From contig JAEOTS010000110.1 of NCBI GenBank assembly GCA_016839745.1, positions 1 through 64,000 of the forward strand: 64,000 bases of DNA. Direction: 5' to 3'. Of the stretch, positions 4,485 through 7,551 are shown piece by piece. The notes under the pieces are model-generated. The model ran no database searches. It saw only the letters and a program-made list of their open reading frames with translations, and was not told the DNA's origin. Source of the DNA: Promethearchaeota archaeon (GTDB taxonomy: Archaea > Asgardarchaeota > Lokiarchaeia > Sigyniarchaeales > SOKP01). Each line of letters opens with the position of its first letter. Within the stretch, counting starts at the first letter, position 1. A program made the position numbers and the translations under genes.

Positions 4485-6821
4485 TTAGGAGTTATTTTGG
4501 TATTTAAATCTACTTAGCTTATAAATTTCTTGAGCAATTTTCTTTCCAACATTTTCAACTTTTATTAATTCCCCAATATCAGCGTTAAAAATCTCTTGGA
4601 GCGAATTTAATTCTCTAAGTAAGTTTTTAGCTCTAAGAGCATTTATACCCGGAATACCTGCAACGATATATTCTAACAAACTTGAAATTTCTATTGGTTT
4701 TTTATCAAACCTTAATTTTAAATCCATTTTTGAATCCGTTTGCTCCTTTTTCGCAAGCTGATAAATAAACGTTGCAGATTCAGATGGATCTTTTGTTTTA
4801 TATACAGTAATTCCTAAATTCAGAATAATTGATGTGATCGCGCCGTAGAGTGCATTTTGGTTAATATTTGAATTTATAAAAGGGTCTCCTTCTAAAATTA
4901 ATATAGGTCTAACAAAATTGTTCTTTAACTCAAATAATTCGTTAAATAATCTCCCATCTTTGACCGAATCGTTAAAGTCTTGTGCTGATTTTCTTTCGAT
5001 CCCAACTCTTTCTGAGATGATATAGTCTGCAACAGTTAATTGTTTTAGTTCTAAACTAACTCCCATTAAGGACAATGCTCTGACAACAGCAGAGGCTGTT
5101 TCTCTGTTATCACAAATTATTGTGTAATCCTCAGCCCCCTTAATCTTCTGGATAAACGATAAATCTGAAGTTATTTTAAGATTGCTGGAATCCTTACTGG
5201 TTTCATCTTTTTTTACAAAATTTAAAAGGTTTGATTGTCCTGCTTTAGAACCTGAACCATGGTCTTTCATGGATTTTAAACTTTGATTCATAACCCGTTC
5301 CTTACCTTTTTCAGCCCAATAATATCTTTCATCACGAGTTCCTTCAGCCATTAATATGAAAACTTTTCCTTCCTTCTTTCTCCCGGTTCTTCCACGACGT
5401 TGAATAGAACGCACAGCACTTGGTACAATGTCGTAAAATATTACTAAATCACATTCCGCTATATCTAAACCTTCTTCTCCAACACTCGTAGCAATTAAAG
5501 TGTTATAAATTCCTTCCTTGAAATCTTCAAGTAGTTGTATTTGTTCTTTTTGAGTTAGACCTTTATCTAAAGATTTGGTGACTTGTCCTACGAATTTATG
5601 CGCCTTTATAACTTCGTCTCTTTCAACAAATTTAACTATATTGTTGACGGAGTCTCTAAAATGACAAAATACCAAAATTCTCGAGTCTCTATTTTGATTG
5701 ATCTGATTATGTAAAATTTGTGCTAATTTTTCTAGTTTAGGATGAACAATACCATTCTCTTTGTTAGTTTCAATTAATTTAAGAACGCGTTTTATGCCAG
5801 AATCTTGAAAAAGTTCTCTTAGTGATTTATTTGCAGTGTTTTGTTTTATTTTTTTAATGTTTTTTTTCATGTAATCATCTAATGCGCTTATTCCTTGAGT
5901 CTCAATAAGCTCATCCATATGGGAAAGCCTTATCGCATTTGCTACAAATTTTTTCGCACTAAATAGTAGTAACTTCTCCTCATCTTCTCTTGAGGCTGAG
6001 ATCTTCCCGTTAATTATTTTATCTAACGCAAGCAAATCTTTTCTAGTAACCTTAGTAACATCTGACGAATTTAATAATTCCTGTTGTTTTAACCATTTGT
6101 ATATTGTTCTTAATTTATCTGTCATTATTTTTTTAATATCCATAAATTCCCTTGGAAGCTTAACCTTTATCCATTCGTTATCAACTTTATAGATGTAAGG
6201 TTTTACGTCTGAATCTTGGTCTGTTCTAATTTCGACACGATCAACGAATAAATTTTCCTTTATTTCGTTAATCTTCCCTTCCGTAGATCCTGGACTTGCG
6301 GTAAGGCCTAAAATTTGGTGGTTCTTGGCGATTTCCATGTATTTCTTAGCAATAAAACAATACGCATAATCTCCTACACTCCGATGACATTCATCAAAAA
6401 TAACTAAAGATACATTCTCTAACGAATAAAGATTTGAAATTATATCATTTTGAAGTACTTGTGGTGTCATAAAAGCAATTTTTAAGTCCTTCCAAATATC
6501 TCTCCTTTTTTCCGGTGATGTAGTTCCAGTAATTGCTATTAAGTTTTCTTCAGGAATAACTGTTAAATCTAAAAAAGATTTATAATGTTGATTTACAAGA
6601 GGTTTGGTTGGAGCTAAGAAGATAATTTTAGAATTAGGCATTTCTGATAATCTGTGTATAGCTAACATTAAAGCTATAACTGTTTTTCCTAATCCCGTAG
6701 GAATAACTACTAAACAATTAGTATTAAGACAATTTATAAATATATTCTCTTGATACGCCCTTCTTAAAATAAAATTTTCCTTAAGTAAAGGGTGCGATAT
6801 AAATTGCTCCTTATTTGACAC
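4485..6821 (-). CDS. hef: Hef helicase-nuclease (FANCM/ERCC4 family)
   Basis: PTGLGKT, DECH, TASPG, EEGLDI, QRRGRTGR helicase motifs; C-terminal ERCC4 nuclease (DNRE, ERKS..DF) plus HhH. Confidence 0.93.
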   Translation of the reverse strand: MSNKEQFISHPLLKENFILRRAYQENIFINCLNTNCLVVIPTGLGKTVIALMLAIHRLSEMPNSKIIFLAPTKPLVNQHYKSFLDLTVIPEENLIAITGTTSPEKRRDIWKDLKIAFMTPQVLQNDIISNLYSLENVSLVIFDECHRSVGDYAYCFIAKKYMEIAKNHQILGLTASPGSTEGKINEIKENLFVDRVEIRTDQDSDVKPYIYKVDNEWIKVKLPREFMDIKKIMTDKLRTIYKWLKQQELLNSSDVTKVTRKDLLALDKIINGKISASREDEEKLLLFSAKKFVANAIRLSHMDELIETQGISALDDYMKKNIKKIKQNTANKSLRELFQDSGIKRVLKLIETNKENGIVHPKLEKLAQILHNQINQNRDSRILVFCHFRDSVNNIVKFVERDEVIKAHKFVGQVTKSLDKGLTQKEQIQLLEDFKEGIYNTLIATSVGEEGLDIAECDLVIFYDIVPSAVRSIQRRGRTGRKKEGKVFILMAEGTRDERYYWAEKGKERVMNQSLKSMKDHGSGSKAGQSNLLNFVKKDETSKDSSNLKITSDLSFIQKIKGAEDYTIICDNRETASAVVRALSLMGVSLELKQLTVADYIISERVGIERKSAQDFNDSVKDGRLFNELFELKNNFVRPILILEGDPFINSNINQNALYGAITSIILNLGITVYKTKDPSESATFIYQLAKKEQTDSKMDLKLRFDKKPIEISSLLEYIVAGIPGINALRAKNLLRELNSLQEIFNADIGELIKVENVGKKIAQEIYKLSRFKYQNNS

Positions 6822-6928
6822 GAAAATTACCAGAAAATATCAGATTATTATATCTTTTAAGAGAAAACTTTCTCAGATATGATTTAAAGTAACAGAGTCT
6901 ATAGAATCTCTTAAATTATATTAATACC

Positions 6929-6938
6929 TTTTTAATAA
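6929..6938 (+). promoter_or_regulatory. Probable TATA box of the tRNA gene
   Basis: TTTTTAATAA ~30-40 nt upstream of the tRNA 5' end; weak because the background is AT-rich. Confidence 0.35.
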
Positions 6939-6968: not shown

Positions 6969-7136
6969 GCGCGAGTGGTTTAGACGTATAACGACACTTT
7001 CACGATAAAAAATTCGTGTAAAGCGTTAAACGCTCACACCGTGTAAATTTTCGCTAATTTAAAGCGATAATCTCGACGGTCGGGGGTTCAAAAGTTTGAA
7101 ATTTTCTTTCAAATTGAAAAATTCCCCCCTTGCGCA
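6969..7136 (+). tRNA. tRNA-Val(CAC) with three introns (28/29, 44/45, ~58/59-59/60)
   Basis: Acceptor GCGCGAG/CTTGCGC+A73; anticodon arm ACACG-CTCACAC-CGTGT after removing 6996-7029; variable AGGTC after removing 7046-7077; T arm GGGGG-TTCAAAT-CCCCC after removing 30 nt (~7093-7122); spliced length 72 nt. Confidence 0.85.
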
Positions 7137-7248
7137 TTAATTTTGAGCAGATAAAAATATTGAACTTACTTGATTTACGATAAAAAACAAAAAAGTTTTA
7201 TTTTATATTACATTTTACCACTCAATTACTAATTCTTAGGATTAAGTT

Positions 7249-7551
7249 ATGTCTTCTTTTTTAGAGTCTCGTGAATTAAGAAAGTTGTATAAAGAAGTTC
7301 GAAAAACCATCAAAATTGGTTCGATTTTCCTTACTAGATACGAAAAAGCTCGCATCACGGGAGCGCGTGCTCTACAGATAAGTTTTGGAGCACCAATTTT
7401 GATCGAAAAGCCTAAGAATGTTATTGATCCTATAAAGATAGCTTTATTAGAATTAAAATCTAAAATCTTACCATTAACAATAAGACGAGAGTACCCTAGT
7501 GGAGAACATCAAGATATTTCGATTAATAAATTAATTCTTAAAAAAGATTAA
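7249..7551 (+). CDS. rpoK: DNA-directed RNA polymerase subunit K (Rpo6)
   Basis: LTRYEKARITGARALQISFGAP and PLTIRR signatures. Confidence 0.95.
   Translation: MSSFLESRELRKLYKEVRKTIKIGSIFLTRYEKARITGARALQISFGAPILIEKPKNVIDPIKIALLELKSKILPLTIRREYPSGEHQDISINKLILKKD

Follow-up and report, generated by a model that had tools for sequence, protein, structure and literature searches.

Interrupted tRNA genes have been described in Asgard archaea on a large scale. Introns were reported in 92-95% of Asgard tRNA genes, and several introns in over half of them (Valentin-Alvarado et al. 2024, PMC11291895). A 2026 preprint (Goswami et al. 2026, doi 10.64898/2026.10.13.758758) describes as many as five intervening sequences in one gene, introns gained repeatedly, an enrichment at bulge-helix-bulge (BHB) borders and a miss rate of 30% by tRNAscan-SE. 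Multi-intron Asgard tRNA genes are already published, and the phenomenon itself is not new. These publications focus on Atabeyarchaeia and Jordiarchaeia/Freyarchaeia, the text of the preprint is without Lokiarchaeia or Promethearchaeia, and one Lokiarchaeota metagenome-assembled genome (MAG) was included by Kaneta et al. 2018 (PMC5829648), by whom an (alpha-beta)2 type of the splicing endonuclease EndA with a specificity loop was already reported in Asgard archaea. Outside the Asgard group, tRNA genes with three introns have long been known from Thermoproteales, an example being tRNA-Pro(UGG) of Pyrobaculum islandicum, which is interrupted at 25/26, 37/38 and 56/57 (Sugahara 2007, cited after PMC4090602). 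For the enzyme, the Crenarchaea-specific loop and its Lys44 were found to confer a broad substrate range on the EndA of Aeropyrum pernix (Hirata et al. 2011, PMC3241643; PDB 3P1Z).

The locus analysed here lies at 6969-7136 on the + strand of the window (the whole stretch of DNA analysed, 64,000 nt in length), and very probably represents, as judged from the sequence and its comparison with relatives, a functional tRNA-Val(CAC) gene, the only one of its Promethearchaeia (Loki-type) host, with three EndA-type introns that would be spliced without a required order. It resembles the published Asgard cases in its multiple short non-canonical introns with BHB or relaxed borders, which annotators miss, in a two-subunit EndA with an L1 loop and in an intron presence that varies among relatives. 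It differs from them in intron length (30-34 nt here, a median of ~22-23 nt in the preprint) and in that one orthologous locus was traced here through ~60 genomes. With the Thermoproteales gene it shares three EndA-type introns, sites in the D/anticodon junction and in the T loop, and an (alpha-beta)2 EndA with loop, whereas the phylum is another one and the 37/38 intron of P. islandicum has no counterpart here.

Gene anatomy and the mature tRNA

The assembly comprises 3.53 Mb in 192 contigs, with a G+C content of 32% and a completeness of 89%. The tRNA gene is flanked at its 5' side by hef (4485-6821, - strand), encoding a Hef-like protein with DEAD helicase, ERCC4 nuclease and HhH2 parts, and at its 3' side by rpoK (7249-7551, + strand), encoding RNA polymerase subunit K (Rpb6). 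The features of the locus are as follows.

6927-6938, + strand: upstream box CCTTTTTAATAA, ending 31 nt upstream of the 5' end of the mature tRNA
6969-6995, + strand: exon 1, tRNA positions 1-28 (acceptor 5' strand, D arm and anticodon-stem bases 1-2, after the ARAGORN cloverleaf)
6996-7029, + strand: intron 1, 34 nt, site 28/29, relaxed HBh' type
7030-7045, + strand: exon 2, tRNA positions 29-44 (remaining anticodon stem, loop CUCACAC, 3' strand and A44)
7046-7077, + strand: intron 2, 32 nt, site 44/45, near-strict hBHBh' type
7078-7092, + strand: exon 3, tRNA positions 45-59 (variable loop, T-stem 5' strand and T loop U54-A59)
7093-7122, + strand: intron 3, 30 nt, site 59/60, in the T loop
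7123-7136, + strand: exon 4, tRNA positions 60-73 (U60, T-stem 3' strand, acceptor 3' strand and A73)
7141-7144, + strand: terminator-like T run

Excision of the three introns leaves 72 nt, which were called as tRNA-Val(CAC) by ARAGORN, and the intron sites were numbered by a Sprinzl count on the spliced cloverleaf, in which 37/38 is unoccupied. The spliced tRNA has an acceptor stem of 7 bp (one G-U), a D stem of 3 bp plus a U-U, an anticodon stem of 5 bp, a variable loop of 5 nt, a T stem of 5 bp (GGGGG/CCCCC) and the T loop UUCAAAU; CCA is not encoded at the 3' end of the gene. Recognition by ValRS depends on A35-C36 and A73 as the identity elements of tRNA-Val. Both were found here, the former within an NAC anticodon (CAC, 7035-7037) and the latter as the discriminator base (A73, 7136).

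Of the two conserved D-loop bases G18 and G19, only G19 was found. The D loop reads AGACGUA (6982-6988), and by alignment with congeners carrying AGUGGUA, the usually invariant G18 is replaced with C. The deviation appears to be tolerated, because it is conserved in about 19 species. The same C pairs with G31 in the precursor, beside intron 1, and a similar D loop, AGUCGUA, is present in another tRNA of the same genome (G000:C181:13472-13562). A coevolution of the G18-to-C change with intron 1, through a new outer-helix C-G pair, was considered and dropped, with intron 1 being kept alongside an intact GG in 5 genomes and with only 2 independent contrasts underlying the linkage.

The unspliced locus was matched in the raw window neither by ARAGORN nor by any Rfam model, which is expected because the gene is split in the anticodon stem and the T loop. 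The unspliced 168 nt fold with a minimum free energy (MFE) of -56.5 kcal/mol (z = -5.9; 0/200 shuffles as good), and no ORF of >=60 aa overlaps the locus. The first-pass annotation, made from the sequence alone, had proposed a tRNA-Val(CAC) with three introns at these borders and sites, none of them at 37/38, and had allowed that standard annotation may miss such genes; the ARAGORN call on the 72 nt together with the exact junctions in the orthologues, the Sprinzl count and the silence of ARAGORN and Rfam on the raw locus agree with it in these respects. Its suggestion that another tRNA-Val(CAC) be looked for was followed through the whole 89%-complete assembly. None was found by ARAGORN -i or RF00005, a regex for an uninterrupted CAC anticodon arm with a 5-bp stem gave two matches, neither with a T arm nearby, and the spliced sequence used as a blastn-short query matched only the T arms of other tRNAs. 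A Val(CAC) gene with anticodon-arm introns, or one in the absent 11% of the genome, would be missed by these searches, and within this scope 6969-7136 is the only tRNA-Val(CAC) gene found.

The box CCTTTTTAATAA is kept in most orthologues of the genus within otherwise variable sequence, at a distance of ~30 to 45 nt from the gene. It is probably a BRE/TATA promoter element, since its position matches that of an archaeal TATA, and this putative element may also serve hef, which is oriented divergently. The T run downstream was read from the sequence as a candidate terminator and is absent in some orthologues.

Intron-lacking orthologues as junction controls

With the DNA of the locus as the query, orthologues were sought in 41 relatives and then in the 42 genomes of the genus. 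The 15-nt anticodon-arm core, which lies in exon 2, was afterwards used on 121 genomes of the order and was found in 76/101 other genomes of the family searched. The orthologous gene occurs in the same hef-tRNA-rpoK setting across the family, and this gene order persists into the neighbouring family. The intron states at the three sites were distributed as follows.

No intron: 0/33 genomes of the genus; 4/23 genomes of other genera of the family
Intron 1 only: 0/33 of the genus; 6/23 of other genera
Intron 2 only: 1/33 of the genus (G017); 3/23 of other genera
Intron 3 only: 1/33 of the genus (G024); 1/23 of other genera
Introns 1+2: 3/33 of the genus; 2/23 of other genera
Introns 2+3: 11/33 of the genus; 3/23 of other genera
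Introns 1+3: 0/33 of the genus; 0/23 of other genera
Introns 1+2+3: 17/33 of the genus; 4/23 of other genera

Seven of the eight possible states were thus seen at three fixed sites in ~60 genomes, and only the combination 1+3 was unseen. Wherever an intron is absent, in the genus as well as in the other genera, the joint coincides to the base with the predicted junction, an agreement far better than chance would give. Intron 1 is exactly missing in 13 genomes of the genus (G017, G024 and the 11 that carry 2+3) and across many other genera, intron 2 in G024 and several other genera, and intron 3 in G010, G006, G016, G017 and other genera, where the T loop left is UUCAAAU or UUCGAAU. The joints in the intron-lacking orthologues read ACGAC/ACGCUC at the site of intron 1, GUGUA/GGUCG at that of intron 2 and UUCAAA/UCCC at that of intron 3 (the slash marks the joint). 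The intron-free orthologues were called as tRNA-Val(CAC) by ARAGORN and scored 61-65 bits on RF00005. The motif-free junction test that is recommended by the 2026 preprint therefore gave the predicted junction at all three sites.

The gene of the neighbouring family is compact, with 73 nt. A different insert, before the anticodon stem, was seen in one genome of that family (G028, locus L132). Two genomes of the genus carry two Val(CAC) matches each on different contigs, G046 (C149:15418-15552 and C108:18110-18244) and G016 (C41:45-59 and C2:143207-143308), and the two matches of G016 apparently differ in intron state; these double matches could be due to a real duplication, a strain mixture or contamination.

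Splice motifs, splicing enzymes and the order of splicing

The strict motif (hBHBh') was defined as a 4-bp central helix with two 3-nt bulges on opposite strands, each cut after the second bulge base, and with an outer and an inner helix. In intron 1, the central helix AACG (6990-6993)/CGUU (7024-7027) is accompanied by the 5' bulge ACA, by an unpaired AAA at the 3' side and by an inner hairpin. No outer helix is stacked on the central one, the nearest pairing being CGU (D loop)/ACG (exon 2) across an internal loop. The borders of this intron are ambiguous by up to 2 nt (an AC repeat) by comparison alone, and the BHB bulge rule places them at 6996-7029. In intron 2, an outer helix of 2 bp (AC/GU), the central helix CGUG/CUCG with one U-U mismatch, the bulges UAA and ACG and an inner hairpin of 9 bp were found, and the central helix is perfect (CGUG/CACG) in 9/27 aligned sequences that bear intron 2. 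In intron 3, the T stem serves as the outer helix, and a perfect central helix UUCA (7087-7090)/UGAA (7115-7118), a canonical 5' bulge AAA and an inner hairpin of 8 bp are present. Its 3' bulge has 5 nt (AAAUU) versus 3 nt in the strict motif, and the cut lies one base before the T stem. By these pairings, introns 1 and 3 are classed as relaxed HBh'-like motifs and only intron 2 is near-strict.

The first-pass annotation had called the motif of intron 1 a clean BHB, of which the AACG/CGUU helix and the unpaired ACA and AAA stand and the stacked outer helix does not. Its relaxed BHB with CGTG/CTCG at intron 2 was recovered, whereas its imperfect register for intron 3 applies to the 3' bulge next to a hairpin that is indeed there, and not to the central helix or the 5' bulge. 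It had also supposed a permissive EndA, with which the two-subunit enzyme and the conserved Lys/Arg of the specificity loop, as read from sequence, are in line.

Two EndA paralogues of 200 aa and 202 aa, both with an N-terminal and a C-terminal endonuclease domain (PF01974+PF02778), are encoded on different contigs (G000:C86 and G000:C93, respectively), and the RtcB ligase is encoded in the genome as well. The alpha paralogue (G000:C86) was aligned over its full length with the A. pernix catalytic subunit (3P1Z_B, E 1.4e-33), without a gap through the Crenarchaea-specific loop, and its K-P-R corresponds to K44, P45 and R46 of A. pernix; the catalytic His is kept, and the region of the catalytic Tyr/His/Lys is present. 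In the beta paralogue (G000:C93), the catalytic His is replaced with Lys and the 8-residue loop is missing, as would be expected of a structural beta subunit. The likeness to the (alpha-beta)2 enzyme of A. pernix thus lies in the retained K44/P45/R46 and catalytic His, and in a separate His-less paralogue in the beta role. The difference is that the heterotetramer and its activity are predicted here from sequence, and that the beta subunit is unlike crenarchaeal beta subunits, being closer to the EndA of M. kandleri and M. jannaschii. The nearest relatives of the EndA of this genome all come from Promethearchaeota/Promethearchaeia MAGs (Loki-type Asgard). Relaxed motifs can be cleaved by an (alpha-beta)2 EndA with specificity loop (PMC3241643, PMC5829648), and the EndA of this genome is predicted to be of the same broad-specificity type and able to cut relaxed motifs.

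From the anatomy, the junctions, the conservation, the covariation and the enzyme genes, we infer the following course of transcription, cleavage and ligation in the cell. Transcription would yield a precursor of about 170 nt, in which each insert, together with the exon bases next to it, would form a bulge-helix-bulge or a relaxed HBh' motif. The (alpha-beta)2 EndA would cut every insert at its two ends, RtcB would join the four exons, and the 72-nt product would refold into the cloverleaf before the addition of CCA. The three motifs lie on different strands of the precursor and could form simultaneously, and no order of splicing would be required.

A fixed order, in which the motifs are mutually exclusive or need a part-spliced intermediate, is improbable. 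It would be suggested by the motifs of introns 1 and 2 each borrowing one strand of the anticodon stem, and that of intron 1 also the 3' strand of the D stem, which makes them incompatible with the mature cloverleaf. The motifs do not compete with each other, however, and all three intron hairpins are held together with the acceptor stem in the MFE fold of the full precursor; in addition, genes with only one or two of the introns occur naturally, which means that the removal of one intron does not depend on the presence of the others. Since the motifs use different strands and subsets of the introns exist in nature, an order would not be needed, and the possibly ordered splicing of the first-pass annotation was abandoned as a requirement. 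The conformer in which all three strict motifs are formed has -41.8 versus -56.5 kcal/mol for the MFE fold, i.e. it is 14.7 kcal/mol less stable in the nearest-neighbour model. This difference is not counted against splicing, since the model penalises bulges and the motif is bound by protein.

It is very unlikely that a functional gene is otherwise processed, for example with a 3' cut of intron 3 after 7120, as the strict rule of a 3-nt bulge would have it, and a resulting T loop of 9 nt. With the UUCA/UGAA helix as the reference, the 3' cut does fall two bases upstream of 7122/7123, but the cut at 7122/7123, deduced from the intron-free orthologues, takes the canonical position when measured from the outer helix (the T stem), and a 7-nt T loop is found in all of the orthologues that lack intron 3. 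Furthermore, the 5-nt bulge recurs in most of the orthologues read by eye, with a 6-nt bulge being needed in G024. Three introns removed at 6996-7029, 7046-7077 and 7093-7122 in no required order are kept as the preferred reading of the locus.

Conservation, possible exchange of introns and other tRNA genes

Exon 1 is identical or near-identical among the 33 genomes of the genus, and exon 2 is invariant at 16/16 positions in 28 aligned sequences of the genus, the exception being a congener outside the alignment (G051, locus L125) with C32 changed to U. While the exons are almost invariant, identity in the flanking Hef fragment drops to 64-91%, and the intron sequences are divergent or can no longer be aligned. 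Covariation was scored in the 28-sequence alignment for the acceptor stem and, in each intron, for the outer, central and inner helices. Pairing was found in 91.7% of the cells in the proposed motifs versus 39-53% with the partners slid by 1-3 columns, and two-sided changes in 19/50 pairs versus 5-9 in the slid controls; the observed covariation score was reached in 0/500 shuffles. The central helix of intron 1 covaries (AU 12, GC 2, GU 2) and its inner helix shows CG to UA changes, and two-sided changes were found at 7/9 pairs of the inner helix of intron 2 and at 5/8 pairs of that of intron 3. In species that have G instead of A at exon base 23, the partner in the mature tRNA (base 12) has C instead of U. 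The partner in intron 1 is likewise changed from U to C in two of these species; in two more, it remains U, which leaves a G-U pair. Near-invariant exons between diverging flanks and introns, together with compensatory changes in the intron helices, indicate that the gene is under selection.

A decaying pseudogene with insertions, with GUG being read by another tRNA, e.g. Val(UAC) by wobble, is hardly credible: the D loop without G18, the relaxed motifs at two of the three introns and the existence of Val(UAC) and Val(GAC) genes (C4:30294 and C35:24665, respectively) would fit it, but the exons are near-invariant in the 33 congeners and in other genera where flanks and introns diverge, the changes in the intron helices are compensatory, and the D loop with the G18-to-C change is itself conserved.

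Introns of this gene may have been exchanged among species. Intron 1 of G023 (contig C121; L016:1496-1662) is identical at 32/32 positions to that of the distant G011/G056 lineage, within an identical tract of 57 nt. The loci and flanks of G023 and G011 (L006:1501-1666) are only ~70% identical, with 5/29 differences in exon 1 and no relationship between their introns 2 (17/32) or between their introns 3 (17/30). Intron 2 of G023 is identical to that of a nearer relative, G006 (L017), with ~81% identical flanks, and G006 carries a different intron 1 of 28 nt. The shared tracts that flank the mosaic segment of G023 are 10 and 16 nt long, which is probably too short for a mosaic made by the assembler, given typical k-mer sizes. 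As a second case, the gene of G048 (L120:77-242) is identical to that of G002 (L007:1501-1666) at 165/166 positions, versus ~81% in the flanks and 78% in the Hef fragment; G011 and G002, which are the closer pair, differ at 3 positions in the gene. The tree built from the flanking Hef fragment implies at least 4 changes in the state of intron 1, and the G011-type intron 1 was found once per genome, at this locus only.

It is possible, and we hold it somewhat short of probable, that homologous recombination among alleles from different species, and not a new insertion each time, accounts for intron gain, replacement and loss at this locus; the near-invariant exons would then be the homology arms. 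This reading draws on two cases (G023 and G048) and on draft MAGs, and such a route of intron exchange is not discussed in the preprint of Goswami et al. 2026 (doi 10.64898/2026.10.13.758758). Introns of Thermoproteales look as if transposed between genes; in this genome, a blastn-short search returned no copy of any of the three introns elsewhere, the best chance matches being <=17 nt. Transposition of introns between tRNA genes has no support, because the introns are without other genomic copies.

About 25 tRNAs each were reported in the assembly by ARAGORN (introns allowed) and by RF00005. An acceptor-plus-T-arm chain scan gave ~30 genes, a number from which genes with introns in the T stem or the acceptor stem escape. 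Of the roughly 46 tRNA genes expected, only ~25-30 can be recognised in the assembly. With 168 nt, tRNA-Val(CAC) is the longest of the ~30, followed by two-intron genes of 133-160 nt, and three introns are the maximum among them. An insert of ~30 nt in the T loop, like intron 3, was also seen in four more tRNA genes (C4:36225-36327, C85:18776-18910, C127:24437-24538 and C164:328-450), which were missed by ARAGORN/Rfam or reported only in a shortened form without the insert; the gene at C85:18776-18910 has a D-loop insert too.

For the annotation of MAGs, the locus means that multi-intron genes have to be looked for, as otherwise tRNA-based completeness and inferences on codon reading will be wrong. 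For the lineage, the locus adds a Promethearchaeia case to the Asgard tRNA genes already published as heavily interrupted, and a syntenic gene with three sites and seven of the eight intron states in ~60 genomes offers a compact natural experiment on the arrival and loss of archaeal tRNA introns.
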